Assembly: GCA_965219005.1 (NCBI GenBank)
Contig: CBDCMS010000004.1
Span: forward strand, 1,146,449 to 1,210,448
Direction of reading: 5' to 3'
Length of the DNA stretch: 64,000 nt
From: Acidobacteriota bacterium
GTDB lineage: Bacteria; Acidobacteriota; UBA6911; RPQK01; JAJDTT01
The position numbers were made by a program, and so were the translations under genes. The notes below the pieces were generated by a model that saw only the letters and a list, made by a program, of their open reading frames with translations, did no database searches and was not told where the DNA came from. Positions 24,837 to 47,600 of this stretch are shown here, in pieces. Every line of letters starts with the position of its first letter. Positions within the stretch are counted from its first letter, which is position 1.

Positions 24837-25508
24837 ATGCATAGCGCAGAAAGTGAGATAGCGGATCCACTGCTCGAATGCTGTAGGAAGAAAGCCCCGG
24901 TGACGATTATGTCCACCATGGGGGTCTTCCAGGGTGAGTTTGTGGCTGTCTCTTCCGGTGACGTCCTTATTGATCTCTTCCAGGGCGAAGAGGAACAGAT
25001 CTGTCGCCCGCTGTCGAGATGCTGCGTTGTTTTCAGCCAACAGAATCAAAGCAAGGTTTTCCTGGCCACGGTGAAGGACTGTATCAAGCCGGAAGCCTCG
25101 GCTCGTCCGCTGGTGGTTTTGTCAAGGGTTTCAGACATAGCCACGGGGGAGAGCAGAGCAGCCTGGCGTGTGCCCCTTCGTCGTGACAATGAGTTGTCCG
25201 TTCGCGTTGTCGATGAGGACAAGAGAGTCTGGCACCCTGAAGCCGTGGACATCAGTTTAACGGGGATTCTGATCAGGTTTCACAAGGACGACGTTCCCGA
25301 CCTCGATGTAGGTGCCTGGGTCGCTCTGGAGTTACGGCTGAACCAACACGAGGTAAAGCTTCCAGCTGACATACGGCGTCGGGATGGACGACTGTACGGC
25401 CTCTTCTTCCCCTACGATTTACACGGGGGGGAGATTACTTCGTCCAACACGCTGCGCCAGGTCGTCAATGAGCTTGAGAGGCAGTGGCTTGGCCGGCATA
25501 TAAGGTGA
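24837..25508 (+). CDS. PilZ-domain c-di-GMP binding protein (YcgR-like, with an N-terminal PilZN-like region)
   Basis: RVPLRR (RxxxR) followed 25 aa later by DISLTG (DxSxxG). 223 aa as called, and the true start may be the Met at 24909. Confidence 0.6.
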   Translation: MHSAESEIADPLLECCRKKAPVTIMSTMGVFQGEFVAVSSGDVLIDLFQGEEEQICRPLSRCCVVFSQQNQSKVFLATVKDCIKPEASARPLVVLSRVSDIATGESRAAWRVPLRRDNELSVRVVDEDKRVWHPEAVDISLTGILIRFHKDDVPDLDVGAWVALELRLNQHEVKLPADIRRRDGRLYGLFFPYDLHGGEITSSNTLRQVVNELERQWLGRHIR

Positions 25509-26074
25509 CTTGTCCACGACCGGCGCTGGGCCTCAGGAAGCGAGCCTTCCAATTGATTCCGAACCTCGACAGAGCGCACCAGACCTCGCGCGCGGACCTT
25601 CCACCGATCCTGCCGGCTGACATTCTGTGCTTCTCAATCCAGACTCGGATGAGCTCTTGCCTCCCGGATCTCATCGATCCGACAAAAAACGCTTCTTTTA
25701 GTACCAGTTAACCACAGTTCGTGAGCTAAAGATCCACCCGGAAACATCCGATAAGTCGGAGGAGGCTAGGGGGAAATACTGCCCGGATGGAGAGGTGTGG
25801 GACGACTCAGACTACCTGAAACGGGCTCTGTTCGACCTATACCTACACTGAGGGTGGATGTGGATGATCGGCCTCCAAGCCTTCACTGCCGAAGGCTATC
25901 CGCAAACGAGCTGTGTGGCGGCTTGGCCGAAGTGTGGGAGCGAAACGCTTGATTGATCGACGCTCCAACAAGAAGCCAGTAGGTGTGACTGTGGCAATAC
26001 CCGTAGGTCGAAGCCCAGTACATCTCGAAAGTCAGTTCAGGCCAGGACCAGCACGCCACTCTCGGATCGACCCT

Positions 26075-29000
26075 ATGACCCTCGCAGCTCTTGGCAGATT
26101 AAAGATCCTACCGATTTTCTTTATGTTTGCCATTCTATGCTCGGCTCCCGCCGCTGCTGCGACCTTGAATTCCGTCCAGTCCGGCACCACCACCATAACG
26201 GGGGGCTCAAAGACCGTCACGATCACCTCCGTCGATACCAGCAAGGCATTCCTCGTCTTTTCCACCCGCCAAAACGAGGAAGAACCCGATGAAGTGCAGA
26301 TCTCGGGGCAGATCACGAACGCAACGACTCTTACTTTCGACCGGGCTGCCGACGAAAAAACTATCAATGTCACCTGGTATGTAGCCGAGTTCACGAGCGG
26401 GGTCTCGGTCCAGCGCGGTCGGGACACCGTCTCCTCAAGTACTGTCAATGTCAGCCTCACCAGCGTAGATACTTCGAAAAGCTTTGCTCTAATTTCGCTC
26501 GAGTCGGCGGTCAATGACAACAGCTATAGCGCCGATAATTTTGTCAGGGCCAAGATCACGAGCAGCACCAACCTCCAATTGCAGGCCGTCACTCCAAACG
26601 CCAGTCTTGCCGTCGAGTGGCAGGTGGTGGAGTTCACGGATTCTAGTGTTCAAACCGGAGATGTCGAGTTTCAAACAGGGGATTCCTCAAAGACCTACAC
26701 CCTCACCGGTGTGGACACGACTAAATCCTGGTTGATCTACACCTACAAGAGTCAAGATGGGACCAGTACCGACATCGGCCAGAAAATGGTCCGCGGTCAG
26801 ATTACGAATGCTACGACCCTCACCTTTGACCGCGACAACACTGGCCAGACCATAGATCTGTCGTGGTTTCTTGTCGAATTCACCGATGGAACCATTGTCC
26901 AGCACAATTCGGAACCCTTCTCCACCAGCGAAACACAGAATGACGTGACGATTACCGCAATCGATACCAGCCGTGCGATTGCGGTGGGCGGTAACTTCCT
27001 CAAAGGTGGAAAGACTCCCAATACGACTTTGGGGGATCCCAGCCCTGCTTGGTTCACTTTGGATTTGACCAGTACCACGAACTTGCGGATGACGCGTGGA
27101 GCCACTCAAACTTCCACCGCAGACGTGGGCTGGTTTGTCATCGATTTCTTGGGTGATGTCCCGGGGTCTACGGTTACCGAGAGTGGCGGTTATACACAAG
27201 TTGACGAGTCTGGGACTACCGATACTTTCACGGTGGTGTTGGATGTACAGCCGGCTACCGACGTAGTGCTCCTGGTCTCGAGCGGCGATACCGGCGAGGC
27301 GACGGTGGACAAGTCCTCTCTGACCTTCACCAACGCCAATTGGACCACGGCCCAGACCGTGACCGTTACGGGCGTCGACGATGTCCCGCAAGACGGGCAT
27401 CAAAACTTCAACGTGACATTGAGCGTCGACGATGCCAACTCGGACGATGCCTATGACCCGGTGGCCGATCAAACTGTCAGCGTCTGGACCACCGACGACG
27501 ACCTGGGACCCGTCCAGCTGAATTCCGTCCAGTCCGGCACCACCACCCTGACGGGGACCTCGCAGACTGCCGCGATCACCTCTGTCGATACCAGCAAGGC
27601 CTTTCTCGTCTTTGGGGTCAACGTCAACGAGAATGAACCAACAAAGGCTCAGATCTCGGGGCAAATCACGAATTCGACGACCCTGACATTTGCACGAATC
27701 GCTACCGGAAATACTGTCACGATCACCTGGCAGGTCGTCGAGTTTGCCAGCGGAGTATCCGTACAGCGGGGCGCCGCCGATATCTCGGGAACCGGGTATC
27801 CGGCCAACGCCACTCTGGTGGCGGTTAACATTGCCAAGAGCTTCCCAATCATCAGCCATCGAACCGACGGCAGCTCGTTCGACGCCAATGATTTCTGGAA
27901 GGCGAAGATCACCTCCCCCACGAATCTAGAGATGGATGCCGACAACGATCCAGATGTGGGCTTTATCGAATGGCAAGTGGTCGAGTATTCCGACGCCAGT
28001 GTCCAGCAGGGAGACCTATCCTTTGCCTCGGGAGACGCCTCGAAAACCGACACCGTAACCAGTGTGGATACTTCCAAGTCCTGGCTCATCTACAGCTACG
28101 ATACGCTAACTGGCACGATCGCGGACATTGGTCAGAAGCTGATCCGTGGGCGCCTGACCAATTCCACGACTCTCACCTTCGACCGGAACAACACGGGAGT
28201 CACTGCTGACCTTTCCTGGTATCTGGTCGAGTTCTCCGACTTAACGACAACCCAGCACGGCTCCCAGAGTTTCACTACCGGCGAGACCCAGAAGAACGTC
28301 ACCATCAGCAGCGTGGAGACGGCGGAATCCATCGCGGCAGGTGGCTACTATGCCCGGGGAGGCAGGTCCTCCTACAGCGGAGACGACAATCCCGGTGTAG
28401 GCTGGTTTACGTTAGATCTCACCAGCTCGACCAACCTCCAGATCGACCGGGAGCTCACGGGGTCGGCCACTGCCGACCTGGGCTGGTTTGTGGTCGAGTT
28501 CAACCAGGCGTCCTTCACGGTGACCGAGTCGGGTGGCTCCACGTCGGTCGCCGAGCCGGGGACTACAGATACGTTCACGGTTGTCCTCGACGAGAAACCA
28601 AACTCCAACGTGGTCTTCAACGTGAGCAGCGGAGACACCGGTGAGGCGACGGTCAATGTCAGTTCGCTGACGTTCACGACGGCCAACTGGAGCACGGCGC
28701 AGACCGTAACGGTTACGGGAGTCGATGACGACATCATCGATGGGAACCAGAATACGACCCTGACCATCAGCGTGGACGATGCCAACTCGGATGACTACTT
28801 CGATCCCCTGGCCGACCAGACCGTGAGTGCGACGACGACCGATGATGATGTGGCCGGCTTCACGGTAGTCGAGTCAGGCGGCTCCACGACGGTGGCGGAG
28901 TCCGGAACGACGGACACCTTCACGGCGGTGCTGGATGCCGAACCCGATTCCAACGTCGTGATCACGGTCGCGAGCGCGGACACGGGAGAGGCGACGGTCA

Positions 29001-32000
29001 ACGTCTCCTCGCTCACGTTTACACCGGCTAACTGGGACACGGCGCAAACGGTCACGGTCACGGGAGTCGACGACGACCTGGACGACGGGAACCAGAACAC
29101 GCTGATCACGATGAGCATCGATGATGCCAACTCCGACGACAACTTCGACCCGTTGTCAGATCAGACCGTGAGCACCACCACGGTGGACGATGACGTCTCC
29201 GGATTCACTCTAGTGGAGTCCTCAGGCTCGACCTCGGTGAATGAATCGGGAACGACCGATACGTTCACGGCGGTACTAGATGCGGAGCCCACCTCCAATG
29301 TGGTGATCCTGGTGAGCAGCGCCGACACCGGGGAAGCAACGGTCGATCTCTCCTTGCTGACCTTCACGCCCGCCAACTGGGATACGGCACAGACGGTGAC
29401 GGTCACGGGTGTAGACGATGACCTGGACGACGGCGACCAGAATACCCTGATCACACTTTCGATCGACGACATCAACTCCGATGACACCTTCGATCCCTTA
29501 CCCGATCAGACGGTGAGCGCAACCACGGTGGACGATGACGTCTCCGGCTTCACGATAGTCGAGTCGGGTGGATCGACTTCGGTGAATGAATCGGGCACCA
29601 CCGATACCTTCACGGCTGTGTTGGACGCGGAGCCCATCTCCAATGTGGTGATCCTGGTGAGTAGCGCCGACACCGGGGAAGCGACGGTCGACGTCTCGTT
29701 GCTGACCTTTACGCCCGCCAACTGGGATACGGCACAGACAGTCACGGTCACGGGTGTAGACGATGACCTGGATGACGGCGACCAGAACACGCTGATCACG
29801 CTTTCGATCGACGACATCAACTCCGATGACACGTTCGATCCGTTGGCCGACCAGACCGTCAGCGCCACGACGGTGGACGATGATGCCTCCGGCTTCACGA
29901 TCGTGGAGTCCTCAGGATCGACCTCGGTGAATGAATCGGGCACGACGGATACCTTCACGGCAGTGCTGGACGCGGAGCCGACTTCTAATGTCGTGATCCT
30001 GGTGAGCAGCGCCGACACGGGAGAAGCAACGGTCGATGTCTCCCTGCTGACCTTCACACCAGCCAACTGGGATACGGCGCAGACGGTGACGGTCACGGGC
30101 GTAGACGACGACCTGGACGATGGGGACCAGAACACCCTGATCACACTTTCGATCGATGACATCAACTCCGATGACACCTTCGATCCCCTGGCCGATCAGA
30201 CGGTCAGCGCTACCACAGTAGACGATGATGCCTCGGGCTTCACGATCGTCGAGTCGGGCGGCACCTCGGTGAATGAATCCGGCACCACCGACACGTTCAC
30301 GGCGGTGCTCGACGCCGAGCCGACCTCCAATGTTGTGATCCTGGTGAGTAGCGCGGACACCGGGGAAGCGACGGTCGACGTCTCGTTGCTGACCTTTACG
30401 CCAGCCAACTGGGATACCGCACAGACGGTCACAGTCACGGGAGTGGACGATGACCTGGACGACGGCGACCAGAATACCCTGATCACACTTTCGATAGACG
30501 ACATCAACTCCGACGATACCTTCGATCCCCTGGCCGATCAGACGGTGAGCGCTACCACGGTGGACGATGACGCCTCCGGCTTCACGATCGTGGAGTCGGG
30601 TGGGACTTCGGTGAATGAATCGGGCACCACCGATACCTTCACGGCAGTGCTCGACGCGGAGCCGACCTCCAATGTGGTGATCCTGGTCAGCAGCGCCGAC
30701 ACGGGAGAAGCGACGGTTGACGTCTCGTTGCTGACCTTCACGCCAGCGAACTGGGATACCGCGCAGACGGTCACGGTTACAGGAGTAGACGATGACCTGG
30801 ACGACGGCGACCAGAATACCCTGATCACACTTTCGATCGACGACATCAACTCCGATGACACGTTCGATCCCTTACCCGATCAGACGGTGAGCGCAACCAC
30901 GGTGGACGATGACGCCTCCGGCTTCACGATCGTGGAGTCGGGTGGGACTTCGGTGAATGAATCGGGCACCACCGATACCTTCACGGCGGTGTTGGACGCC
31001 GAGCCCACCTCCAATGTGGTGATCCTGGTGAGCAGTGCCGACACTGGGGAAGCCACGGTCGATGTTTCGCTGCTGACGTTTACGCCCGCCAACTGGGATA
31101 CGGCACAGACGGTCACCGTCACGGGAGTGGACGATGACCTGGACGACGGCGACCAAAACACCCTGATCACGCTGAGTATCGATGACGCGAACTCGGATGA
31201 CACCTTCGATCCCTTGGCCGACCAGACCGTGAGTGCGACCACGGTGGACGATGACGCCTCGGGCTTCACGATCGTCGAGTCGGGCGGCACCTCGGTGAAT
31301 GAATCGGGCACCACCGATACCTTCACGGCGGTGTTAGACGCCGAGCCCACCTCCAATGTGGTGATCCTGGTGAGCAGTGCCGACACCGGGGAAGCGACGG
31401 TCGACGCCTCGTTGCTGACCTTCACGCCAGGCAACTGGGATACCGCACAGACGGTCACGGTCACCGGAGTAGACGATGACCTGGACGACGGCGACCAGAA
31501 CACCCTGATCACACTTTCGATAGACGACATCAACTCCGATGACACCTTCGATCCCTTACCCGATCAGACCGTCAGCGCCACGACGGTCGACGATGACGCT
31601 TCGGGCTTCACGATCGTCGAGTCAGGCGGCACCTCGGTCAACGAATCGGGCACCACCGACACGTTCACGGCGGTGTTGGACGCGGAGCCCACCTCCAATG
31701 TGGTGATCCTGGTGAGCAGCGCCGATACCGGAGAAGCAACGGTCGATGTCTCCTTGCTGACCTTTACGCCCGCCAACTGGGATACCGCGCAGACGGTCAC
31801 GGTCACCGGAGTAGACGATGACCTGGACGACGGCGACCAGAACACCCTGATCACACTTTCGATAGACGACATCAACTCCGATGACACCTTCGATCCCTTA
31901 CCCGATCAGACCGTCAGCGCCACGACGGTCGACGATGACGCTTCGGGCTTCACGATCGTCGAGTCAGGCGGCACCTCGGTCAACGAATCGGGCACCACCG

Positions 32001-35000
32001 ACACGTTCACGGCGGTGTTGGACGCGGAGCCCACCTCCAATGTGGTGATCCTGGTGAGCAGCGCCGACACTGGGGAAGCCACGGTCGATGTTTCGCTGCT
32101 GACGTTTACGCCCGCCAACTGGGATACGGCACAGACGGTCACCGTCACGGGTGTCGACGATGATCTCGATGATGGCGACCAGAACACGCTGATCACTCTT
32201 TCGATCGACGACATCAACTCCGATGACACCTTCGATCCCTTACCCGATCAGACGGTCAGCGCTACCACGGTGGACGATGACGCTTCCGGATTCACGATCG
32301 TTGAATCAAGTGGATCGACCTCGGTGAATGAATCGGGCACCACCGATACCTTCACGGCGGTGTTAGACGCGGAGCCCACCTCCAATGTTGTGATCCTGGT
32401 AAGCAGCGCCGACACCGGGGAAGCGACGGTCGATGTCTCGTTACTGACCTTCACGCCAGCGAACTGGGATACGGCGCAGACGGTCACGGTCACCGGAGTA
32501 GACGATGACCTGGACGACGGAGACCAAAACACCCTGATCACGCTGAGTATCGATGACGCGAACTCGGATGACACCTTCGATCCCTTGGCCGACCAGACGG
32601 TCAATGCCACCACGGTGGACAATGACGCCTCGGGATTCACGATCGTGGAGTCGGGTGGGACTTCGGTAAATGAATCGGGCACCACCGATACCTTCACGGC
32701 GGTGCTGGACGCGGAGCCGATCTCCAATGTCGTGATCCTGGTCAGCAGCGCGGACACCGGGGAAGCGACGGTAAACGTCTCTTCGCTGACGTTTACGCCG
32801 GCCAACTGGGATACCGCACAGACAGTGACGGTCACGGGAGTAGACGACGACCTGGACGACGGAGACCAAAACACCCTGATCACGCTGAGTATCGATGACG
32901 CGAACTCGGATGACACCTTCGATCCCTTACCCGATCAGACGGTCAATGCCACCACGGTGGACGATGACGCCTCGGGATTCACGATCGTGGAGTCGGGTGG
33001 GACTTCGGTAAATGAATCCGGAACGACGGATATCTTCACGGCGGTACTGACGGCGGAGCCCACCTCCAATGTGGTGATCCTGGTCAGCAGCGCGGACACC
33101 GGGGAAGCGACGGTAAACGTCTCTTCGCTGACGTTTACGCCGGCCAACTGGGATACCGCACAGACAGTGACGGTCACGGGAGTAGACGATGACCTGGACG
33201 ATGGCGACCAGAACACGCTAATCACTCTTTCGATAGACGACATCAACTCCGATGACACCTTCGATCCCCTGGCCGATCAGACGGTGAGCGCAACCACGGT
33301 GGATGATGATGCTTCCGGCTTCACGATCGTGGAGTCCTCAGGATCGACCTCGGTGAATGAATCGGGCACGACGGATACCTTCACGGCGGTGTTGGACGCC
33401 GAGCCGACCTCCAATGTGGTGATCCTGGTGAGTAGCGCCGACACCGGGGAAGCGACGGTCGACGCCTCCCTGCTGACGTTTACGCCCGCCAACTGGGATA
33501 CGGCACAGACGGTCACGGTCACGGGTATCGATGACGACCTGGATGACGGAGACCAGAACACACTGATTACGCTTTCGATTGATGACATTAACTCCGACGA
33601 TACCTTCGACCCCCTACCCGATCAGACCGTGAGCGCCACGACGGTGGACGATGACGCCTCTGGTTTCACGATCGTGGAGTCGGGCGGCACCTCGGTGAAT
33701 GAATCCGGTACGACCGATACGTTCACGGCGGTGCTGGACGCGGAGCCGACCTCCAATGTCGTGATCCTGGTGAGCAGCGCCGATACCGGAGAAGCGACGG
33801 TCGACGTCTCCCTGCTGACGTTTACGCCCGCCAACTGGGATACCGGACAGACGGTCACGGTTACAGGAGTCGACGACGACCTGGATGACGGCGACCAGAA
33901 CACCCTGATCACACTTTCGATAGACGACATCAACTCCGATGACACGTTCGATCCCTTACCCGATCAGACGGTCAGCGCTACCACGGTGGACGATGACGCC
34001 TCCGGCTTCACGATCGTGGAGTCGGGTGGGACTTCGGTAAATGAATCGGGCACCACCGATACCTTCACGGCGGTGCTGGACGCGGAGCCGACCTCCAATG
34101 TGGTGATCCTGGTCAGCAGTGCCGACACGGGAGAAGCGACGGTTGACGTCTCGTTGCTGACCTTCACGACCGCCAACTGGGATACCGCGCAGACGGTCAC
34201 GGTCACGGGTGTGGACGACGACCTCGACGACGGGGATCAGAATACGCTGATCACGCTTTCGATAGACGATGCCAACTCCGACGATACGTTCGATCCCCTG
34301 GCCGATCAGACGGTGAGCGCCACCACGGTGGACGATGACGCCTCCGGATTCACGATCGTGGAATCTGGTGGGTCGACTTCAGTAGATGAATCCGGGACTA
34401 CGGATACGTTCACGGCGGTGTTGGACGCCGAGCCGACCTTCAATGTGGTGATCCTGGTGAGTAGCGCCGACACCGGGGAAGCGACGGTAAACGTCTCTTC
34501 GCTGACGTTTACGCCCGCCAACTGGGATACCGCACAGACGGTCACGGTCACGGGAGTAGACGATGACCTGGACGACGGCGACCAGAACACCCTGATCACA
34601 CTTTCGATCGATGACATCAACTCCGATGACACGTTCGATCCCTTACCCGATCAGACCGTCAGCGCTACCACGGTGGACGATGATGCCTCCGGCTTCACGA
34701 TCGTGGAGTCCTCAGGATCGACCTCGGTGAATGAATCAGGTACGACGGATACGTTCTCGGCGGTGCTCGATGCGGAGCCCACCTCCAATGTGGTGATCCT
34801 GGTCAGCAGCGCCGACACGGGAGAAGCGACGGTTGACGTCTCGTTGCTGACCTTCACGCCCGCCAACTGGGATACCGCACAGACGGTCACGGTTACTGGA
34901 GTAGACGATGACCTGGACGATGGTGACCAGAATACCCTGATCACCTTGAGTATCGATGACGCGAACTCGGATGACACCTTCGACCCCTTGGCCGACCAGA

Positions 35001-35638
35001 CCGTCAGCGCCACGACGGTCGACGATGACGCTTCGGGCTTCACGATAGTCGAGTCGGGTGGGACTTCGGTGAATGAATCGGGCACCACCGATACCTTCAC
35101 GGCAGTGCTGGACGCGGAGCCGACTTCCAATGTCGTGATCCTGGTGAGCAGCGCCGATACGGGAGAAGCGACGGTCGACGTCTCGTTGCTGACCTTCACG
35201 CCAGCCAACTGGGACACGGCGCAGACGGTGACGGTCACGGGTATCGATGACGACCTGGATGACGGAGACCAGAACACACTGATTACGCTTTCGATTGATG
35301 ATATTAACTCCGACGATAGTTTCGATCCCTTGCCCGATCAGACGGTCAGTGCCACGACGGTGGACGATGACGCTTCCGGTTTCACAATCGTGGAGTCCTC
35401 AGGTTCGACGTCGGTGAATGAATCGGGCACGACGGATAACTTCACGGCAGTTTTGACGGTGGAGCCCACCTCCAATGTGGTGATCCTGGTGAGCAGCGCC
35501 GACACCGGGGAAGCGACGGTCGACGTCTCCCTGCTGACGTTTACGCCCGCCAACTGGGATACGGCGCAGACGGTCACGGTCACGGGTGTAGACGATGACC
35601 TGGACGACGGCGACCAGAATACCCTGATCACACTTTAG
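26075..35638 (+). CDS. Giant secreted repeat protein (adhesin-like), N-terminal segment. It ends at an in-frame TAG (35636-35638) that interrupts an otherwise continuous ~7,350-codon frame
   Basis: Signal peptide MTLAALGRLKILPIFFMFAILCSAPAAAA. Two ~450-aa N-terminal duplicated modules are followed by 114-aa tandem repeats starting near 28.5 kb, carrying acidic DDDLDDGDQ and DDxNSDD motifs. The ORF starts at 25913, and I picked the Met at 26075 as the likely start. Confidence 0.85.
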   Translation: MTLAALGRLKILPIFFMFAILCSAPAAAATLNSVQSGTTTITGGSKTVTITSVDTSKAFLVFSTRQNEEEPDEVQISGQITNATTLTFDRAADEKTINVTWYVAEFTSGVSVQRGRDTVSSSTVNVSLTSVDTSKSFALISLESAVNDNSYSADNFVRAKITSSTNLQLQAVTPNASLAVEWQVVEFTDSSVQTGDVEFQTGDSSKTYTLTGVDTTKSWLIYTYKSQDGTSTDIGQKMVRGQITNATTLTFDRDNTGQTIDLSWFLVEFTDGTIVQHNSEPFSTSETQNDVTITAIDTSRAIAVGGNFLKGGKTPNTTLGDPSPAWFTLDLTSTTNLRMTRGATQTSTADVGWFVIDFLGDVPGSTVTESGGYTQVDESGTTDTFTVVLDVQPATDVVLLVSSGDTGEATVDKSSLTFTNANWTTAQTVTVTGVDDVPQDGHQNFNVTLSVDDANSDDAYDPVADQTVSVWTTDDDLGPVQLNSVQSGTTTLTGTSQTAAITSVDTSKAFLVFGVNVNENEPTKAQISGQITNSTTLTFARIATGNTVTITWQVVEFASGVSVQRGAADISGTGYPANATLVAVNIAKSFPIISHRTDGSSFDANDFWKAKITSPTNLEMDADNDPDVGFIEWQVVEYSDASVQQGDLSFASGDASKTDTVTSVDTSKSWLIYSYDTLTGTIADIGQKLIRGRLTNSTTLTFDRNNTGVTADLSWYLVEFSDLTTTQHGSQSFTTGETQKNVTISSVETAESIAAGGYYARGGRSSYSGDDNPGVGWFTLDLTSSTNLQIDRELTGSATADLGWFVVEFNQASFTVTESGGSTSVAEPGTTDTFTVVLDEKPNSNVVFNVSSGDTGEATVNVSSLTFTTANWSTAQTVTVTGVDDDIIDGNQNTTLTISVDDANSDDYFDPLADQTVSATTTDDDVAGFTVVESGGSTTVAESGTTDTFTAVLDAEPDSNVVITVASADTGEATVNVSSLTFTPANWDTAQTVTVTGVDDDLDDGNQNTLITMSIDDANSDDNFDPLSDQTVSTTTVDDDVSGFTLVESSGSTSVNESGTTDTFTAVLDAEPTSNVVILVSSADTGEATVDLSLLTFTPANWDTAQTVTVTGVDDDLDDGDQNTLITLSIDDINSDDTFDPLPDQTVSATTVDDDVSGFTIVESGGSTSVNESGTTDTFTAVLDAEPISNVVILVSSADTGEATVDVSLLTFTPANWDTAQTVTVTGVDDDLDDGDQNTLITLSIDDINSDDTFDPLADQTVSATTVDDDASGFTIVESSGSTSVNESGTTDTFTAVLDAEPTSNVVILVSSADTGEATVDVSLLTFTPANWDTAQTVTVTGVDDDLDDGDQNTLITLSIDDINSDDTFDPLADQTVSATTVDDDASGFTIVESGGTSVNESGTTDTFTAVLDAEPTSNVVILVSSADTGEATVDVSLLTFTPANWDTAQTVTVTGVDDDLDDGDQNTLITLSIDDINSDDTFDPLADQTVSATTVDDDASGFTIVESGGTSVNESGTTDTFTAVLDAEPTSNVVILVSSADTGEATVDVSLLTFTPANWDTAQTVTVTGVDDDLDDGDQNTLITLSIDDINSDDTFDPLPDQTVSATTVDDDASGFTIVESGGTSVNESGTTDTFTAVLDAEPTSNVVILVSSADTGEATVDVSLLTFTPANWDTAQTVTVTGVDDDLDDGDQNTLITLSIDDANSDDTFDPLADQTVSATTVDDDASGFTIVESGGTSVNESGTTDTFTAVLDAEPTSNVVILVSSADTGEATVDASLLTFTPGNWDTAQTVTVTGVDDDLDDGDQNTLITLSIDDINSDDTFDPLPDQTVSATTVDDDASGFTIVESGGTSVNESGTTDTFTAVLDAEPTSNVVILVSSADTGEATVDVSLLTFTPANWDTAQTVTVTGVDDDLDDGDQNTLITLSIDDINSDDTFDPLPDQTVSATTVDDDASGFTIVESGGTSVNESGTTDTFTAVLDAEPTSNVVILVSSADTGEATVDVSLLTFTPANWDTAQTVTVTGVDDDLDDGDQNTLITLSIDDINSDDTFDPLPDQTVSATTVDDDASGFTIVESSGSTSVNESGTTDTFTAVLDAEPTSNVVILVSSADTGEATVDVSLLTFTPANWDTAQTVTVTGVDDDLDDGDQNTLITLSIDDANSDDTFDPLADQTVNATTVDNDASGFTIVESGGTSVNESGTTDTFTAVLDAEPISNVVILVSSADTGEATVNVSSLTFTPANWDTAQTVTVTGVDDDLDDGDQNTLITLSIDDANSDDTFDPLPDQTVNATTVDDDASGFTIVESGGTSVNESGTTDIFTAVLTAEPTSNVVILVSSADTGEATVNVSSLTFTPANWDTAQTVTVTGVDDDLDDGDQNTLITLSIDDINSDDTFDPLADQTVSATTVDDDASGFTIVESSGSTSVNESGTTDTFTAVLDAEPTSNVVILVSSADTGEATVDASLLTFTPANWDTAQTVTVTGIDDDLDDGDQNTLITLSIDDINSDDTFDPLPDQTVSATTVDDDASGFTIVESGGTSVNESGTTDTFTAVLDAEPTSNVVILVSSADTGEATVDVSLLTFTPANWDTGQTVTVTGVDDDLDDGDQNTLITLSIDDINSDDTFDPLPDQTVSATTVDDDASGFTIVESGGTSVNESGTTDTFTAVLDAEPTSNVVILVSSADTGEATVDVSLLTFTTANWDTAQTVTVTGVDDDLDDGDQNTLITLSIDDANSDDTFDPLADQTVSATTVDDDASGFTIVESGGSTSVDESGTTDTFTAVLDAEPTFNVVILVSSADTGEATVNVSSLTFTPANWDTAQTVTVTGVDDDLDDGDQNTLITLSIDDINSDDTFDPLPDQTVSATTVDDDASGFTIVESSGSTSVNESGTTDTFSAVLDAEPTSNVVILVSSADTGEATVDVSLLTFTPANWDTAQTVTVTGVDDDLDDGDQNTLITLSIDDANSDDTFDPLADQTVSATTVDDDASGFTIVESGGTSVNESGTTDTFTAVLDAEPTSNVVILVSSADTGEATVDVSLLTFTPANWDTAQTVTVTGIDDDLDDGDQNTLITLSIDDINSDDSFDPLPDQTVSATTVDDDASGFTIVESSGSTSVNESGTTDNFTAVLTVEPTSNVVILVSSADTGEATVDVSLLTFTPANWDTAQTVTVTGVDDDLDDGDQNTLITL

Positions 35639-38600
35639 ATCGACGACATCAACTCCGATGATACGTTCGATCCCTTACCCGATCAGACGGTCAGCGCTAC
35701 CACGGTGGACGATGACGCCTCGGGATTCACAGTGGTGGAATCGAGTGGATCGACGTCGGTAGATGAATCGGGGACGACCGATACCGTCACGGTGGTACTG
35801 GATGCAGAGCCCGCCTCCAACGTGGTGATTACGACAACGAGTGGAGATACCGGCGAAGCGACCGTGGGTGTGTCCTCGTTGACCTTCACCCCGGCCAACT
35901 GGAATACCGCACAGCCGGTGACGGTCACGGGGGTGGACGACGACCTGGACGACGGCGACCAGAGCACGCTGATCACCCTGAGTATCGACGATGCCAACTC
36001 CGATGACAGCTTCGATCCCTTGGCTGATCAGACGGTCAACGCCACTACGGTGGATGATGACGCCTCCGGATTTACGATCGTGGAGTCGGGTGGATCGACT
36101 TCGGTGAATGAATCCGGCACGACGGATACCTTCACAGCGGTACTAACAGCGGAGCCAGCCACGAATGTTGTGATCCTGGTCAGCAGCGCTGACAGCGGCG
36201 AAGCGACCGTGAACGTGTCCTCGCTGACCTTTACGTCCGCCAATTGGAATACCGCGCAGACGGTCACAGTGACGGGAGTGGACGACGACCTGGACGACGG
36301 CGACCAGAGCACGCTGATCACCCTGAGTATCGATGATGCCAACTCCGATGACAGTTTTGATCCCTTGGCCGATCAGACGGTGAGTGCCACCACGGTGGAC
36401 GATGACGCCTCGGGATTCACCGTGGTGGAGTCCAGCGGGTCGACGTCGGTGAATGAGTCCGGCACGACGGATAGCTTTACAGTTGTCCTGACAGCAGAGC
36501 CAAGTTCCAACGTCGTGATTCTGGTGAGCAGCGCCGACACCGGTGAAGCGACGGTCGATCTCTCCCTCCTGACCTTCACCCCAGTCAACTGGGACACAGC
36601 GCAAGCGGTAACCGTTACGGGTGTGGACGACGACCTGGATGACGGCGACCAGAGTACGCTGATCACGCTTTCGATAGACGACGCCAACTCGGATGACACC
36701 TTCGATCCGTTGTCAGATCAGACGGTCAACGCCACTACGGTGGACGATGACGCCTCGGGATTCACAGTGGTGGAATCGAGCGGATCGACCTCGGTGAATG
36801 AATCGGGCACGACGGATAGCTTTACAGTTGTCCTGACAGCAGAGCCAAGTTCCAACGTCGTGATTCTGGTGAGCAGTGCCGATACCGGCGAAGCGACCGT
36901 GGGTGTGTCCTCGTTGACTTTCACGCCGGCCAACTGGAATACCGCACAGCCGGTGACGGTCACGGGAGTGGACGACGACCTGGACGACGGCGACCAGAGT
37001 ACGCTGATCACGCTTTCGATAGACGACGCCAACTCGGATGACACCTTCGATCCGTTGTCAGATCAGACGGTGAGTGCCACTACGGTGGACGATGACGCCT
37101 CGGGATTCACAGTGGTGGAGTCCAGCGGGTCGACGTCGGTGAATGAATCCGGCACGACGGATACCTTCACAGCGGTGCTAACAGCGGAGCCAGCCACGAA
37201 TGTAGTGATCCTGGTGAGCAGTGCCGATACCGGCGAAGCGACCGTGGGTGTGTCCTCGTTGACCTTCACCCCGGCCAACTGGAATACCGCACAGCCGGTG
37301 ACGGTCACGGGAGTGGACGACGACCTGGACGACGGCGACCAGAGCACGCTGATCACGCTGTCGATAGACGACGCCAACTCCGACGATTCCTTCGATCCGT
37401 TGTCAGATCAGACGGTCAACGCCACTACGGTGGACGATGACGCCTCGGGATTCACAGTGGTGGAATCGAGTGGATCGACCTCGGTGAATGAATCGGGTAC
37501 GACGGATAGCTTTACAGTTGTCCTGACAGCAGAGCCAAGTTCCAACGTCGTGATTCTGGTGAGCAGTGCCGATACCGGCGAAGCGACCGTGGGTGTGTCC
37601 TCGTTGACCTTCACCCCGGCCAACTGGAATACCGCACAGACGGTCACGGTCACCGGAGTAGACGATGACCTGGACGATGGCGACCAGAACACCCTGATCA
37701 CACTTTCGATCGACGACATCAACTCCGATGACACGTTCGATCCCTTGGCCGATCAGACGGTGAGTGCCACCACGGTGGACGATGACGCCTCGGGATTCAC
37801 GGTGGTGGAATCCAGCGGATCGACCTCGGTGAATGAAGCGGGCACGACGGATAGCTTTACAGTTGTCCTGACAGCAGAGCCAAGTTCCAACGTCGTGATT
37901 CTGGTGAGCAGTGCCGATACCGGCGAAGCGACCGTGGGTGTGTCCTCGTTGACCTTCACGCCGGCCAACTGGAATACCGCACAGCCGGTGACGGTCACGG
38001 GAGTGGACGACGACCTGGACGACGGCGACCAGAGTACGCTGATCACGCTTTCGATAGACGAGGCCAACTCCGACGATTCCTTCGATCCGTTGTCAGATCA
38101 GACGGTGAGTGTGACCACGGTGGACGATGATGTTGGCGGCTTCACGGTCGTGGAATCCAGCGGATCGACCTCAGTGGATGAATCGGGTACGACGGATACC
38201 TTCAGCGTGGTGCTGGCGGCGGAGCCAGCCTCGAACGTCGTGATCATGGTCGGCAGTGCAGATACGGGCGAAGCCACCGTGGACCAGGCGACGTTGACGT
38301 TCGTGCCGGGGAGCTGGAACACGCCTCAGGTGGTGACGGTGACCGGCGTCGATGATGATCTGGTCGACGGCGATCAGACTACGCTCGTCACGCTGTCAAT
38401 CGACGACGCCAACTCGGATGACACTTTTGATCCCTTGGCCGATCAGACGGTGAGTGTGACCACCACCGATGATGATGCGGCCGGCTTCACGGTGGTGGAG
38501 GCGGCGGGATCGACGTCGGTAAGCGAGTCGGGCACGACGGACACGTTCACAGTAGTTCTCACGGCAGAGCCTGCCTCCAACGTCGTGATCCTGGTCAGCA

Positions 38601-41600
38601 GTGCAGATACGGGCGAAGCCACCGTGGACCAAGCGACGCTGACGTTCGCACCGGGGACCTGGAACACGCCTCAAGTGGTGACGGTGACCGGTGTTGATGA
38701 TGATCTTGTTGACGGCGACCAGAGTACGCTCGTCACGCTGTCAATCGACGACGCCAACTCGGATGACACTTTTGATCCCTTGGCCGATCAGACGGTGAGT
38801 GTGACCACCACCGATGATGATGCGGCCGGCTTCACGGTGGTGGAGGCGGCGGGATCGACGTCGGTAAGCGAGTCGGGCACGACGGACACGTTCACAGTAG
38901 TTCTCACGGCAGAGCCTGCCTCCAACGTCGTGATCCTGGTCAGCAGTGCAGATACGGGCGAAGCCACCGTGGACCAAGCGACGCTGACGTTCGCACCGGG
39001 GAATTGGAACACGCCTCAGTTGGTGACGGTGACGGGAGTAGACGACGATTTGGTCGATGGCGACCAGAGTACGCTCGTCACGCTGAGCGTCGATGACGCC
39101 AACTCCGATGACACCTTCGATCCGCTGGCCGACCAGACGGTGAGTGTGACCACGACGGATGACGATGCGGCGGGCTTCACTGTGTTGGAGACGGCGGGAT
39201 CGACGTCGGTAAGCGAGTCGGGCACGACGGACACCCTTACAGTAGTTCTCACGGCAGAGCCTGCCTCCAACGTGGTGATCACGGTCGGCAGTGCCGATAC
39301 GGGCGAAGCCACGGTGGACCAAGCGACGCTGACGTTCGCACCGGGGACCTGGAACACGCCTCAGGTGGTGACGGTGACCGGCGTTGATGATGATCTGGTC
39401 GACGGCGACCAGAGTACGCTAATCACGCTGAACGTCGATGACGCCAACTCCGATGACAGCTTCGATCCCTTGGCTGACCAGACGGTCAATGCGACGACGA
39501 CGGATGATGACGCAGCCGGCTTTACAGTGGCGGAGACAGGCGGATCGACGTCGGTCAGCGAGTCGGGTACCACGGACACCTTTACAGTGGTCCTGACGGC
39601 AGAGCCGGCCTCTAGCGTGGTGATTCTGGTCAGCAGTGCCGATACGGGTGAGGTCACCGTGGACCAAGCGGCGTTGACATTTGCGCCGGGCAACTGGAGC
39701 ACGCCTCAGGTGGTGACGGTGACCGGTGTCGATGATGATCTCGTTGATGGCGATCAGACTACGCTCGTCACGCTGAGTGTTGATGACGCCACCTCGGATG
39801 ACACATTCGATCCCCTGGCTGACCAGACGGTGAGTGTGACCACCACCGATGATGATGCGGCCGGCTTCACGGTGTTGGAGACGGCGGGATCGACGTCGGT
39901 AAGCGAGTCGGGAACGACGGACACGTTCACAGTAGTTCTCACGGCAGAGCCTGCCTCTAACGTGGTGATCACGGTGGGCAGTGCCGATACGGGCGAAGCC
40001 ACGGTGGATCAGGCGGCGCTGACATTTGCGCCGGGCAACTGGAGCACGCCTCAGGTGGTGGCGGTGACCGGTGTCGATGATGATCTGGTCGACGGCGATC
40101 AGACTACGCTCGTCACGCTGAGCGTTGATGATGCCACCTCGGATGACACATTCGATCCCCTGGCTGACCAGACGGTGAGTGTCACGACCACGGACGATGA
40201 TGCGGCGGGCTTTACGGTGCTGGAGACGGGCGGATCGACTTCGGTGAGCGAGACAGGAACGACGGACACCTTCACAGTGGTGTTGACGGCGGAGCCGGCG
40301 TCCAGTGTCGTGATTCTGGTCAGCAGCGCCGATACGGGTGAGGCCACGGTGGATCAGTCAGCGGTGACGTTCACGCCGGCCAACTGGAATGCTCCACAGA
40401 TACTGACGGTCACCGGCATCGACGATGATCTGGTCGACGGCGACCAGAGGACGCTCGTCACCCTGAGCGTCGATGACGCCAATTCCGATGACGACTTCGA
40501 TCCTCTGGCCGACCAGACGGTGAGTGTGACTACGACGGACGATGACGCAGCCGGATTCACGGTAGGCGAGACGGGCGGATCGACTTCGGTGAGCGAAACA
40601 GGAACGACGGACACCTTCACAGTGGTGTTGACGGCGGAGCCGGCGTCCAACGTGGTGATCCTGGTCAGCAGCGCCGATACGGGTGAGGCCACGGTGGATC
40701 AGTCAGTCCTGACGTTCACGCCGGCCAACTGGAATGCTCCACAGATACTGACAGTGACCGGCATCGACGATGATCTGGTCGACGGCGACCAGACTACGCT
40801 CGTCACCCTGAGCGTCGATGACGCCAACTCGGATGACAGTTTTGATCCACTGGCTGATCAGACGGTGAGCGCGACCACGACGGATGACGATGCGGCCGGC
40901 TTCACCGTGTTGGAGACGGCGGGATCGACGTCGGTAAGCGAGTCGGGAACGACGGACACGTTCACAGTAGTTCTCACGGCAGAGCCTGCCTCCAACGTGG
41001 TGATCACGGTCGGCAGTGCAGATACGGGCGAAGCCACCGTGGACCAAGCGACGCTGACGTTCGCACCGGGGAACTGGAACACGCCTCAGGTGGTGACGGT
41101 GACCGGCGTCGACGATGATCTCGTCGACGGCGACCAGACCACGCTCGTCACACAGTCTATTGATGACGCCAACTCGGATGACGCCTTCGATCCCCTGGCC
41201 GACCAGACAGTCAGTGCGACCACCACGGATGATGACGCGGCCGGTTTCACGGTGTTGGAGACGGCGGGATCGACGTCGGTAAGCGAGTCGGGAACGACGG
41301 ACACGTTCACAGTAGTTCTCACGGCAGAGCCTGCCTCCAACGTGGTGATTCTGGTCAGCAGTGCCGATACGGGTGAGGCCACGGTGGATCAGTCAGCGGT
41401 GACGTTCACGGCGGCCAACTGGAATGCACCACAGATACTGACGGTCACCGGCATCGACGATGATCTGGTCGACGGCGACCAGAGTACGCTCGTCACCCTG
41501 AGCGTCGATGACGCCAATTCCGATGACACCTTCGATCCCCTGGCTAACCAGACGGTGAATGTGACCATCACCGATGATGATGCGGCCGGCTTTACGGTGG

Positions 41601-44600
41601 CAGAGACAGATGGATCGACGTCGATCAGCGAGACGGGAACGACGGATACCTTCAGTGTAGCCCTCGCAGCTGAGCCAGTCTCCAACGTGGTGGTCCTGGT
41701 CGTCAGTGCCGATACAGGTGAGGCCACGGTGGATCAGGCGGCGCTGACGTTCACGCCGGCGAACTGGAATGCTCCACAGATGCTGACAGTGACGGGCGTC
41801 GATGATGATCTTGTCGACGGCGACCAGAGTACGCTCTTCACGCTGTCGATCGACGACACCAACTCGGATGACGCCTTCGATCCGGTAGCGGACCAGTCGG
41901 TGACGGTCACCACGACCGATGATGACGCGGCTGGCTTTGCGGTCGTAGAGACGTCGGGCTCGACCTCAGTGAACGAGTCGGGCACCACGGACACCTTCAG
42001 TGTAGCCCTGGCCGCAGAGCCGACTTCCAACGTAGTGATCCTCCTCAGCAGCGCCGATACGGGCGAAGCCACGGTGGGTCAGGCGACGCTGACCTTCACG
42101 CCGGCAAGCTGGAACGTCGCCCAGATCGTCACCGTCACCGGCGTAGACGACCAAATCGTCGATGGAGATCAGAATAGCAGCATCTCCCTCAGCATTGACG
42201 ATGCAAGCTCCGCCGACAGTTTTGACTCACTGCCTGATCAGACGGTCTCGGTCTCGACGGTCGATGACGACAACGCCGGCTTTAGCGTAGTCGAGTCAGG
42301 GGGCTCAAGCGAAGTGGACGAGTCCGGAAAGAAGGACAGCTTCACGGTCCAGCTCACCAGACAGCCGCTTTCGGATGTAGTGATCTCAGTGACCAGCGGA
42401 GATACCAGCGAAGTCACCGCCAGCCCCGCCAGCCTGACCTTCGGCCTCGGCAACTGGCAGGTCCCCCAACAAGTCCAGCTGACCGGAGTAAACGACCAGG
42501 TTGCCGACCAGGACAAGACGGTCCAGATTGCGCTGAGTGTTCTCGACGCCAGCTCCGACGACGCCTGGGATGATCTTTCCGACCAAACGGTCTCGGTGAA
42601 GAATGTGAACGACGATCCAGCCGGCTTCATCGTTACCCAGAGCAACGGATCCACCCGCGTGGACGAGTCCAAGACTACCGATAAGGTGACGGTGGCTCTC
42701 AAGAATGAGCCGAGCTCGAACGTGGTGGTGGTGGTAAGCACTTCTGATCCGGGAGAAGCGGAAATCAATCCGGGCTTCCTGACCTTCACTCCTGCCACCT
42801 GGGACATCCCTCAGGAGATCGTCGTAACTGGCGTTGACGACGATCTCCTGGATGGAAGTCAGAGCTCGGTTGTGACCCTGAAGATCGATGATGCCAACTC
42901 GGACGATGCCTTCGATTCCCTGCCTGACCAAAGCATCAACGTTACGGTTACCGACGACGACGAAGCCGGTTTTATTGTCACCGAGAACGGGGGCTCCACC
43001 GAGGTGGAGGAGTCCGGGAGCACCGATACGTTTACCGTGGTTCTGCGGGTTGAGCCTGGGTCTGACGTGGTGGTGGCAATCGAGAGCGAAGACGTCACGG
43101 AAGTCCGAGTCAGTCCAACTTCCCTGACATTCACGCCCGCCAACTGGAACGTGACGCAGCGGGTCAACCTTGTCGGCGTCGATGACACTCTGGCTGACGG
43201 AGACAAAGACACCTCGATCTACGTGAAGGTGGACGGCTCCAGCTCGGATAATGCATTCGCCGGCGTGCCCGACCAGAGCGTCACCGTGACCACAATCGAC
43301 GACGACCCTGCCGGTTTTCGGGTGGAGGAGTCCGAGGGCTTTACCGAGGCAGCTGAATCCGGCGTAACTGACACCTTCTCAGTCGTGTTGGAGGCGCAGC
43401 CGGAGTCGGATGTCGTCCTGAGCGTCACGAGTGCGGACAGTTCCGAAGTGACCGTAAACAGGGATTCCCTGGTCTTCACGACCGAGAATTGGAACGTCCC
43501 ACAGCAGGTCACGGTGAGCGCTGTTGATGACGACCTGATCGACGGCTCGAAAAGCGTTTGGGTGACGGTCGGCGTGAACATCGACTCCTCGGCCGATCCC
43601 TTCGACGCCTTGCCCGATCAAAGGCTCCAGGTGTCGTCCCGAGACAATGACGCCGCCGGCTTCTCGGTCAGCGAAAGCGAGGGATCGACCCAGACCAAGG
43701 AATCGGAAGACCCTGACAGCTTTACCGTGGTTCTCAACGCCAGGCCCGAGTCGAACGTGGCTATCAAGATCGCACACAGCGATCAGTCGGAACTTGCGGT
43801 GATTCCAAATGTCCTGACCTTTACGCCAGACAACTGGTCTGTCCCCCAACAGGTGAATGTGCAAGCCGTGAACGACGATTGGATCGACGGCGATAAGACC
43901 CATCAGCTGACCCTCAGCGTGGACGAGCTACTCTCGGCCAGCAGCTTCCACGCTGCCGCGGATCAAGTGCTCGAAGTGACCGTCCTCGACAATGATCTGC
44001 CTGGTTTCACGACACGCGAATCGAACGGCTCCACTCAGGTCGATGAATCGGGCAGCACCGATCCCACGGAGACTAGCGTGAGCCCGACAGTCCTGAGCTA
44101 CGGACGCAGCAACTGGACAGAGGCACAGGTGGTGACCGTGACCGGGGTAGACGACGAGGAAGCCGATGGGATCCGGACGAGTAACGTGCTCTTCAGCATT
44201 GATGATGCCAGATCCCATCCTGCCTTCCATCATCTCTCGGACAAAGCCATCCAGGTGGCGACGACTGATGATGATACGGCAGGCTTCACCGTAACCGAGT
44301 CCGGCGACGGCACCCGAGTAGAAGAATCCAATGGGACCGATGTGCTGACCGTCGTCCTGAACCGGGAGCCTGGCGGCCGGGTGTTGCTTCGAGTAAGCAG
44401 CTCTGATCTAACCGAAGTTGTTGTCAATCTGCCTTTCCTCACCTTTACGCCGGCCAACTGGTCTCAGGCGCAGTCCGTTACCGTGATTGGAGTCGACGAC
44501 GATGTGGTAGACGGGGACAAAACGACGCTCCTGAGTATCGCTGTCGATGATGCTCTCTCGGACGATCTTTTTGATCCACTGCCGGCCCAGACGGTCCAGG

Positions 44601-44620
44601 TGACGACCCTGGATGATGAC
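28490..44620 (+). repeat. Tandem array of about 47 copies of a 342-bp (114-aa) repeat inside the giant gene. There are at least 4 subfamily blocks (about 28.5-35.7, 35.7-38.1, 38.1-42.0 and 42.0-44.6 kb)
   Basis: Strict 342-bp periodicity is shown by the period-342 antisense stop-free ORFs and repeated peptide units. Adjacent copies in the first block are more than 95% identical at the nucleotide level. Confidence 0.9.
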
Positions 44621-47600
44621 CAGGCTGGTGTCAGGATCGCCTCTGATGGGTCGGGCGCTGCGGCCGAGGGTGGTGGGGCCTATGCCTATGATGTCATGCT
44701 CACCGCGCGGCCCTCATCCAGTGTCTCGGTGACCCTAGACCCGGACGATCAAACGGACCTGGGCAACGGAGCGGGTGTGCCTTCGATCCTTGTATTCGGG
44801 CCGACTCAATGGGCAACAGCCCAGAGAGTTACCGTGGTAGCCGTCGACGACGATCTGACCGAAGGGGAGCATACTTCGACGATTCGTCATTCATCGCGAA
44901 GCAGTGATGCCGACTTCGATCGTGTCTCCATCCCGGTCGTTGTCGTTACCATTACCGACGACGACGATGACAAGGTCGATGTAGGTGTCGTTACACTGGT
45001 GGACGACAGGAACCCGGAAGAAGGTCAGAAGATCAAGTACTCAATCGCCGTCACCAACCACGGTCCGGCGGATGCTTCCGAGGTCATCGTAAGCGATCAC
45101 TTGCCTGAAGGAGTGACCCTGACCTCGGTCAACCCGTCGCAGGGAAGCTACGATGGGTCCGGCCTTTGGGAGGTCGGTAAGCTGATCAGCGGTAAGACCG
45201 CCAGCTTGATTCTGGAGGCCGTGGTCGAGAGTGAAACAGAGGGTCGAGAGATCCAGAACATTGCGAGCGTGGTATCCGTGCAAGAGGAGGACTCGAACAT
45301 CAGCAACAACTCGGACAGCATTGATATCGTGGTGGGAGGCAACACGGAAATCGATCTTTCCGTCACCCAAGAATGCTCTTCCGCTTCGGTGGCGGCCGGT
45401 GGAACGCTCGTCTTTACGCTGGAGATTCTGAACCAGAGTAGCTCGGTGGCGACCGGAGTGAAGCTTGATGATGCACTGCCCCCGGAGGTAACTCTGGTTT
45501 CGGCTATACCCAGTCAGGGAGCCTGCTCCACCGACGGTAAAACGCTGCAGTGCGAAGTTGGCAAATTGTCCGCCGGCGGCAGAGTTACCATTCAGCTGGT
45601 GGTGAAAGTTCTTGCTGACACCCAGGGGACCATTACCAACACTGCAGCGGTCAAGGGAGGAGAAGAGGATCCAGATCCATCGAACAATGCCTCCTCGGCC
45701 GACGCTGAGGTGGATGAAGACAGTGATTCCGATGGGGTCACCAACCCGGTGGAGGAGGCAGCGCCCCGGGGTGGTGACGCCAACGCCGACGGAGTTGCCG
45801 ACAGCCAACAGCGCCACGTCGTCTCTCTGCGCAATGCGGCCGATGGAACCTACGTGACGCTGGTCTCTCCAGAGGGGACCTTCTTCAGGGATACGATGAG
45901 CCTGGGGCTCGATGACAGCGGAGTGCTGGGAGCTACCTCCACGGCTTTGCCGGCTAATGTCCAACTACCTCTGGGCCTGTTTGACTTCACGCTGCGCGGC
46001 ATCGCTACAGGAAGTGCGGTCGAGATCGAGCTGCTGGTTCACTCAGAGACAGCGACCAACGGCTATTACAAACTGGGACCCACCCCGGAAAGCAGTCGCA
46101 CCCACTGGTACGCCTTCAACTTCGACGGGGACACCGGTGCCGAGGTCGATGGCGACTCAATCGTTCTCCACTTCGTTGATGGTGAACTGGGCGATGATGA
46201 CTTGAGTGCCGACGGGCAGATCCAAGACGCAGGGGGCCCCGTCCTCTTGACCCACTCCGACGTCTCCCTTCTAGCCACAGGATTTGGCCACCCGGCACAG
46301 GTGGGTGAGCGCTTGACCTGCAGCTTTACAGTTGCCAACTTCGGTCCTGCGCCAGCCCAGGGGGTTGTGCTACGGAACTGGCTGGACCAGGGACTGAGCT
46401 TCTCGGGTTCCAGCCTGTCGGAGAGCGCCTGCCGTGGGTCCGGCGACGGCTTCGAGTGCCGGCTGGACAACCTCGCCCCCGGTGACTCGATCAGCCTGGA
46501 GATTGAGCTCGAAGTCACCGAGATCGGAACCTTGACTCACGTGGCCGAGGTGAGTGCCGTCGAGCCGGATCCCAACCCGTCCAACAACCGGATCGAGCTG
46601 GAAGCACAGATTATAGCTCCCTTGATCATTCCCGCATCGGTGGATCTGGGGAATCGATTCTTCGAAAACACCTATGTGGGTGTGGCCCTGATGAATCCGC
46701 AACCCCACGTCAACCCGGTCAGCGTCGAGCTTCGCGACGCTCAGGGAGTCCCACTCCAGAGCGGAGGTTTCGGAAACTCGCTTCCGACCCTGGGACAGAA
46801 CGCCCTGCGAACGGAGCAGATTGTTGATTTGCATCAGGAAGTGGCTGCTCTGATTGCCCAGGGTGAGCAGGGCAATCTCCAAGGCTTCTTCATGTTGGGT
46901 GACTACCCAATGCAAAAGCTCGATGGTCTGGGAGGCCAGCTGGAAAGATCCGCAGAACTGTACTTTTCTTCGGTGGTTCAAGGCAGCGAAGCAGCGACCC
47001 TCTTCTTCCTGTTCAACCCGTCCAGGGAGGAGAGTTCAGGGGCGAGTTTCAGACTATTCGATGCCTCGGGATATCTGCTTGATGAGACTTCGCTGCTGAT
47101 TGCTCCATCGGGTTCGGTTCTGGGCGACTTGGAAGAGATCCTGGGCTGGGAAGTGAGGGTCAGCAATGGCTATGTCGAGATCACGGCCGACCTTCCGCTC
47201 CGGGGTGCCGCCTTCAGGGGTGATTCGGAGACGATTTCCGCTCTTCCGGGAAGAGCAGGCCCGCCGCTCAGGAAGCTGATAGCGCCTCACTTCTTCTTTA
47301 GTGCCGATGGCGATGACACCGAGATCCATTTGTTGAACGTCGACCCTGGCGAAGCCACCGTTACGCTCACGGTTGTGAGTGACAGCGGGGGGCTGCTGGC
47401 CACCCATGAGTTGGTTCTCGATCCTGGACAGCTTCGGGTGGAGAGTGTCCGGAAACTGGTCGAGGCCCTCTCTCCCGTAGCGCCAGAACGAGCAAGCGGC
47501 TACCTTCTGCTGGACGTGACGCCTAACGATGTACGGCAGGTTTTGAAGAAGGGTGCACGTTTGATCGGAAGTGTGAGCTTCAACCTCGGGGGCGGCAGGG

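Follow-up and report, generated by a model that had tools for sequence, protein, structure and literature searches.

Several bacteria encode giant adhesins composed of tandem Ig-like repeats, such as Salmonella SiiE, Pseudomonas LapA and Marinomonas MpIBP. These proteins are type I secretion substrates that carry C-terminal RTX or secretion signals and are made without an N-terminal Sec signal. In MpIBP, the repeats are nearly identical in DNA. The protein examined here is encoded by a giant gene in a 64-kb window (the whole stretch of 64,000 nucleotides that was analysed) and resembles these adhesins in being very long and acidic, in containing Ig-like beta-sandwich repeats of ~100–115 aa, tens of them in tandem, and in having distinct N- and C-terminal regions. 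It differs from them in its N-terminal sequence, which appears signal-like, and in its C-terminus, which carries a DUF5719-like module together with DUF11 and choice-of-anchor U domains. No Pfam or NCBIfam match to RTX (HemolysinCabind) was found in its C-terminal 1955 aa. Unlike those of MpIBP, its repeats have diverged in DNA, with a dS of about 0.66. Given the lack of an RTX match and the apparently Sec-like N-terminus, the gene was not assigned to the class of type I-secreted RTX giant adhesins.

According to the preliminary description, a single in-frame TAG splits one 22-kb gene whose frame is otherwise continuous from 26075 to 47968, leaving ORFs of 3241 and 4087 aa. The translation bears out the first two points: from ATG to TGA, the plus strand reads through 7297 codons, and the sole internal stop is codon 3188, a TAG at 35636–35638 within the ATC ACA CTT TAG ATC GAC stretch (35621–35644). 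The two ORFs, 25913–35638 (3241 aa, GTG) and 35705–47968 (4087 aa), do share the same frame, but the length of the first needs revision. The most likely start of the giant gene is the ATG at 26075, which yields 3187 aa rather than 3241 and matches the recorded product of the source contig; the GTG at 25913 is a less likely start. The remaining two frames contain 310 and 415 stops over the giant gene, so an open frame of such length is far beyond chance. A further 4109 codons stay open 3' of the TAG, and no additional stops or frameshifts were found in the translation of 35639–47968. Judged from this frame and from the sister assemblies described below, the two ORFs are one gene, and the uninterrupted ORF of 7297 codons is its normal state. 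The features of the gene and its product are listed in Table 1.

Table 1. Coordinates of the giant gene, its interruption and the predicted parts of its product (window positions).
Feature	Coordinates	Strand	Basis and remarks
Complete giant gene	26075–47968	+	7297 codons + TGA; one interruption in the source assembly
Probable Sec signal peptide, MTLAALGRLKILPIFFMFAILCSAPAAAA	26075–26161	+	Basic n-region, hydrophobic core and AAA motif in translation
Upstream ORF	26075–35638	+	3187 aa, 331 kDa; the product if the TAG is real; P0252, source contig only
Ig-like, Calx-beta-like repeat array, 114–115 aa	28856–44626	+	39 regular copies to 42277, then divergent
Repeat 20, TAG-bearing, final copy of the upstream 'A-type' block	35378–35722	+	Repeat boundaries
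Internal TAG, codon 3188	35636–35638	+	Base 35637 is A; C in both sister assemblies
Gene remainder 3' of the TAG	35639–47968	+	Recorded by the gene caller as 35732–47968, GTG, 4078 aa (P0251), without its own signal peptide
Three DUF11 (CLIPPER) domains	44978–46624	+	PF01345, E 1e-77, 258 bits against a cutoff of 24.6, three stretches
Choice-of-anchor U domain	~45950–46243	+	NF041766 (NCBIfam), 67 bits against a cutoff of 32
Conserved C-terminal module, 447 aa, DUF5719-related	46625–47965	+	Homologue search, model

The conceptual full product has a mass of 755 kDa and a pI of 4.05. The predicted signal peptide is followed by two related N-terminal modules, roughly 450–500 aa each, for which no family was found in Pfam or NCBIfam. 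Homologues of these modules were found at 52–56% identity in MAGs assigned to Gammaproteobacteria, Vicinamibacterales and even Thermoplasmata. Searches of genome and metagenome contigs with the N-terminal module retrieved distant homologues only (at most 57–58% identity), the species itself being absent from those collections.

The array comprises about 47 repeats in total. A single repeat, modelled with AlphaFold2 from an alignment of 24 copies, adopts a beta-sandwich (pLDDT 95), in which the stop corresponds to residue 87 of 115, inside the second-to-last beta-strand (residues 80–88). No match to the PDB was found by sequence. Foldseek placed the model close to Ig-like folds, including the Calx-beta domain CBD1, with a TM-score of about 0.6. 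The predicted fold superposes on CBD1 of NCX1 and CALX (3gin, 3e9t, 2dpk and 3rb7) at 14–22% identity, and several database homologues of the repeats have precomputed matches to Calx-beta (PF03160) or are named Calx-beta. However, a Pfam scan of three repeats gave no PF03160 match, only marginal hits to TcdB_toxin_midN, NUP210 Ig and CsgH, and generic Ig-like folds fit equally well, PapD-like and MSP domains scoring the same as CBD1. Homologue searches with the repeats returned proteins only up to about 1780 aa, many of them with frameshifted tails and none near-identical.

The giant protein exceeds the PF01345 gathering score and belongs to the DUF11 (CLIPPER) surface-protein class. For the C-terminal module, 1130 representative homologues were retrieved (E<=1e-3), almost all of which have the module at their extreme C-terminus, and these proteins carry Big_9, cadherin-like, PKD or DUF11 domains. 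PF18986 (DUF5719) matched 23 of 33 aligned homologues. The model of the module consists of several compact beta-sandwich domains (pLDDT 94, pTM 0.92) and had no global match in the PDB (TM<=0.2); a literature search on DUF5719 and on the assembly accession numbers found nothing. If the stop is real, the downstream ORF, which has no signal peptide, would be unlikely to yield an independent functional product.

The repeats have a period of 345 bp, and Tandem Repeats Finder counted 39.2 copies between 28622 and 42112. It had been proposed that the stop arose by a single C-to-A change in an array of near-identical repeats, every other copy of which would read the same six codons with TCG in place of TAG. 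The first point agrees with the array: the homologous codon is Ser in 37 of 39 repeats (TCG in 20, AGT in 7, AGC in 7, TCA in 2 and TCT in 1), the last two copies having one Asn and the one TAG, and TAG is a single C-to-A step from TCG, the commonest codon. The uniformity of the array does not hold, as the exact 18-mer, ATCACACTTTCGATCGAC, is present in only three other copies (CTTTCGATCGAC is found in five). Near-identity applies at the protein level only: in the upstream block (repeats 2–20), amino acid identity is about 96%, whereas nucleotide identity is about 87% (dS 0.66, dN/dS 0.04). The downstream repeat blocks have dN/dS values of 0.11–0.13. The repeats have, therefore, evolved under strong purifying selection on both sides of the stop (dN/dS 0.04–0.13).

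This divergence makes the copies distinguishable around the stop. The TAG-bearing copy has at least 32 nucleotide differences from any other 345-bp copy, and exact identity with another copy across the site, once C is restored at 35637, extends over no more than 86 bp. The next, distinct repeat block begins ~90 bp from the TAG. At the homologous position, A is absent from all 38 other copies and could not, therefore, have been introduced by misplaced reads.

The 90% cluster of the giant-gene products contains P0254, P0253 and P0255 in addition to the two products of the source contig (4,241,329 bp, NCBI and ENA), the only contig for which those two are recorded. P0254 (7297 aa) is intact and is encoded on the ENA contig ctg836547_12x_l (ERZ25067264; 2,723,759 bp), while P0253 (4110 aa) and P0255 (3097 aa) are both encoded on ctg255031_4x_l (ERZ25072670; 174,181 bp); we refer to these as the 12x and 4x contigs. 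P0254 differs from the conceptual translation of the window at three residues only (P828S, stop-3188-S and K7259E). Ser at codon 3188 is also present in P0253, and the codon is TCG in both contigs. Over 47.9 kb (16075–64000), the window and the 12x contig are separated by five substitutions and no indels. The substitutions lie at 16895, 28556, 35637, 47849 and 60987. The 4x and 12x contigs agree with each other at the first four sites, which makes the window alleles there private; at 60987, the 4x contig has the window allele. Three of the four private substitutions are transitions, and all four alter a protein: one lies in a glycosyltransferase (G334D) and three lie in the giant gene (S828P, S3188-stop and E7259K). 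From the TAG to the end of the gene (35639–47968, 12.3 kb), the sole difference from the intact orthologue is the one at 47849. Near 35637, the three assemblies are otherwise identical, the closest further variable positions being 31638 and 36547. As read from these assemblies, the A at 35637 is private to the source assembly and Ser represents the ancestral state.

The same comparison revealed what assembly faults look like in this gene family. In the 4x contig, clustered differences at 38338–38597 form a patch that is 98.6% identical to another copy of the repeat (window 40749–41035) and contains three one-base insertions that break the frame. This patch is a genuine case of repeat confusion, unlike the lone substitution at 35637. 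A more distant relative, ctg564737_20x_l (ERZ25068966), whose repeats are about 88% identical in protein, has its orthologue in five pieces, with frame changes, out-of-register junctions and a ~600-bp stretch riddled with deletions. The pattern of single-base indel errors is present in both the 4x contig and ctg564737_20x_l. The suffixes 4x, 12x and 20x, together with _l, probably denote coverage and linearity, a naming style that suggests the use of a long-read metagenome assembler.

The explanations offered at the outset were a nonsense mutation of recent date and an error of either assembly or consensus. The comparisons confirm that a single gene carries a private A and weaken mis-assembly through near-identical repeats. 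We favour a very recent, real nonsense allele at codon 3188, which we regard as the probable explanation. In the population behind the source contig, one C-to-A substitution would have converted TCG (Ser) into TAG. The change would be very recent, as there is no decay downstream and the intact gene persists in strains that are 99.99% identical. Translation would end inside repeat 20, giving a secreted fragment that would retain its signal peptide and N-terminal modules along with 19 complete repeats, and would lack the distal ~27 Ig-like repeats, the three DUF11 domains, the choice-of-anchor U domain and the conserved C-terminal module. We infer both that the A is present in the DNA, rather than being a base-calling error, and its effect on the protein. 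The differences between the window and the 12x contig look like true single-nucleotide variants, because they include no indel and the known type of error is the single-base indel.

The favoured nonsense allele resembles the strain-specific nonsense alleles, or young pseudogenes, of large genes for bacterial surface proteins and adhesins. One base creates the stop in a long ORF that is intact elsewhere, near-identical strains have the uninterrupted allele, and secondary decay is absent. The ORFs flanking the stop share a frame, the array spans the stop and relatives have a sense codon at this position. It differs from those pseudogenes in that the allele is known here from assembled consensus sequence. 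The frequency of such a change can be put in numbers. Among random substitutions in the giant gene, 2.2% would create a stop, and the probability of one nonsense change among the three private changes in this gene is about 0.06; a private nonsense change is, therefore, mildly unexpected under any neutral model. As the repeats are under strong purifying selection, a knockout would normally be selected against. The chance that all four private differences alter a protein is about 0.32, and this pattern is equally compatible with random errors and with very young mutations.

The main alternative, less likely and still a real possibility, is an isolated error of consensus or base calling at 35637, the organism having TCG and making the full 7297-aa protein. 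The A is a singleton against C in both near-identical assemblies, all four private differences are non-synonymous, and the gene is under strong purifying selection and undecayed 3' of the stop, all of which would suit such an error. In addition, contigs of the same naming style have low-quality stretches in this giant-gene family, and giant genes are known to be broken in long-read assemblies (10.1101/2023.11.21.568195). West-Roberts et al. described giant genes ended early by single-base indels in such assemblies, and two neighbouring giant ORFs that became one after local assembly correction (10.1101/2023.11.21.568195). The present locus resembles these split genes in that two adjacent in-frame giant ORFs are one gene. 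However, the interruption here is a substitution, and the region otherwise matches an independent assembly. The error types documented or observed are the single-base indel and the patch from another copy, not the lone substitution, and no indels separate the window from the 12x assembly over 47.9 kb. Reads from other copies cannot supply the A, which is absent from all of them, and the site can be placed uniquely and lies ~90 bp from the start of the next, distinct repeat block. The single 4.24-Mb source contig also suggests good coverage.

A variant of the nonsense reading, in which the TAG is real and favoured by selection, so that the population of one host or site of this uncultured bacterium, probably a member of Acidobacteriota, sheds the distal 4100 residues of its giant surface protein, appears improbable. 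The advantage might, for example, lie in escaping recognition of the C-terminal part by a phage or host factor. Under the same reading, the broken orthologues elsewhere would reflect frequent natural loss rather than assembly noise.

Mis-assembly or collapse among near-identical repeats, producing a chimeric copy that bears the stop, is very improbable. It draws some plausibility from the 39-copy array with its highly similar protein repeats and from the 4x assembly, which does hold a patch from a different copy. However, the length of the array and all its bases except 35637 match an independently assembled contig (7297 codons, no indels). The low DNA identity between copies and the short exact match over the site also leave little scope for confusion, and chimeras can only recombine existing variants, among which the A is not found.

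TAG was said to act as a normal stop elsewhere, for example at 5215–5217. This TAG does end the ORF 4105–5217, and the codon also ends the genes at 18397–21336, 22484–24244 (minus strand) and 50451–51788, as given by gene calls transferred from the sister contig. Between 16.6 and 57.2 kb, TAG is the terminator of 3 of the 14 mapped genes. Since it ends at least three neighbouring genes, TAG is not recoded here; since the sister assemblies encode Ser at codon 3188, the stop is neither conserved nor programmed. Both results count against recoding of the stop codon and against reassignment of TAG. Decoding of the TAG by programmed read-through, a suppressor tRNA or pyrrolysine, with the full-length protein being made, is very unlikely: it would account for the long open frame beyond the stop, but it has against it the ordinary Ser codon (TCG) in both sister assemblies, the Ser that predominates at the homologous position of the repeats, the TAG terminators of at least three well-supported neighbouring genes and a search of the 64-kb window for tRNA genes that found none. 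Jointly, mis-assembly and recoding carry a very small share of the probability.

As for the genomic context, the GC content is 59%. A gene for a PilZ protein lies immediately upstream of the giant gene. Other neighbours encode a subtilase, a TonB-dependent-like outer-membrane barrel with CarboxypepD_reg, an Nramp transporter and several IS transposases. An adjacent adenosylhomocysteinase has its best named match in Acidobacteriota, at 80% identity, which makes this phylum a tentative assignment.

For annotation, the locus is to be treated as one 7297-codon gene whose internal stop is flagged, rather than as a pair of giant genes. The case also offers a practical way to tell true variants from repeat-driven assembly artefacts. 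Where the copies of an array differ clearly at synonymous sites, a lone substitution found in no other copy suggests either a true variant or a random error; artefacts are indicated by indels and by patches taken from other copies. A stop of this kind, or an error in one base, is in itself an ordinary event in a giant repeat gene. If real, the stop would capture the onset of the loss of a 755-kDa surface protein.

Repeats 2-20 of the giant gene (array at 28856-42277 of the window) share 96% identity at the protein level but only 87% at the DNA level, their copies being diversified in codon usage. With a dS of 0.66 and a dN/dS of 0.04, these sequence comparisons indicate that the array is old, and that its constancy comes from selection on the protein rather than from recent homogenisation. 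Codon diversification may have the added effect of reducing recombination between copies.

Each of the four substitutions found only in this assembly, including the one that creates the internal stop codon, alters a protein, and the giant gene contains three of them. With so few changes this is not significant: the probability of finding no synonymous change among four is about 0.32.

Broken orthologues were also found in related contigs. One repeat of the 4x sister contig has a segment (approximately 22264-22530 of locus L024, corresponding to 38338-38597 of the window) replaced by sequence with 98.6% identity to the copy seven repeats downstream and with three one-base insertions, splitting the gene into products of 4110, 98 and 3097 aa. 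This patch is an example of a repeat-confusion error or of gene conversion. The orthologue in a more distant relative (L022, 1-23001, on a contig with the suffix 20x) is in five pieces of 1230, 906, 1862, 1187 and 3147 aa. Its reading frame changes, one repeat junction is out of register, and a stretch of about 600 bp (9280-10000) is riddled with deletions. Many database homologues end in frameshifted tails.

Features of the giant gene and its surroundings, with the substitutions private to this assembly
Feature	Window position	Remarks
PilZ-domain (c-di-GMP-binding) protein gene	24900-25508	same strand as giant gene, ~570 bp upstream
Two related N-terminal modules	26162-28500	homologues in loci L002-L011
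Conserved C-terminal module, 447 aa	46625-47965	related to DUF5719
G334D	16895	
S828P	28556	
S3188*	35637	
E7259K	47849	

The N-terminal modules matched no family in Pfam or NCBIfam. Homologues that are 52-56% identical to them come from MAGs with the labels Gammaproteobacteria, Chromatiaceae, Vicinamibacterales and, in one case, a Thermoplasmata archaeon, a spread that could reflect either wide transfer or bin contamination. The C-terminal module has 1130 representative homologues, almost always located at the extreme C-terminus of varied, surface-type proteins, which also carry Big_9, cadherin-like, PKD and DUF11 domains. Its confidently predicted structure (pLDDT 94) consists of packed beta-sandwiches, and the model has no global match in the PDB. 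The module may have an anchoring or sorting role.

Several IS transposases (IS1595, DDE_Tnp_1 and DDE_3; window 60708-61631 and L025/L026) flank the region. Just past the right end of the window, at positions 2400-4600 of L025 and L026, a DDE_Tnp_1 element differs in position and orientation between the 4x and 12x sister contigs, which suggests recent IS activity. The proximity of the PilZ gene hints at c-di-GMP-linked control of the giant surface protein.
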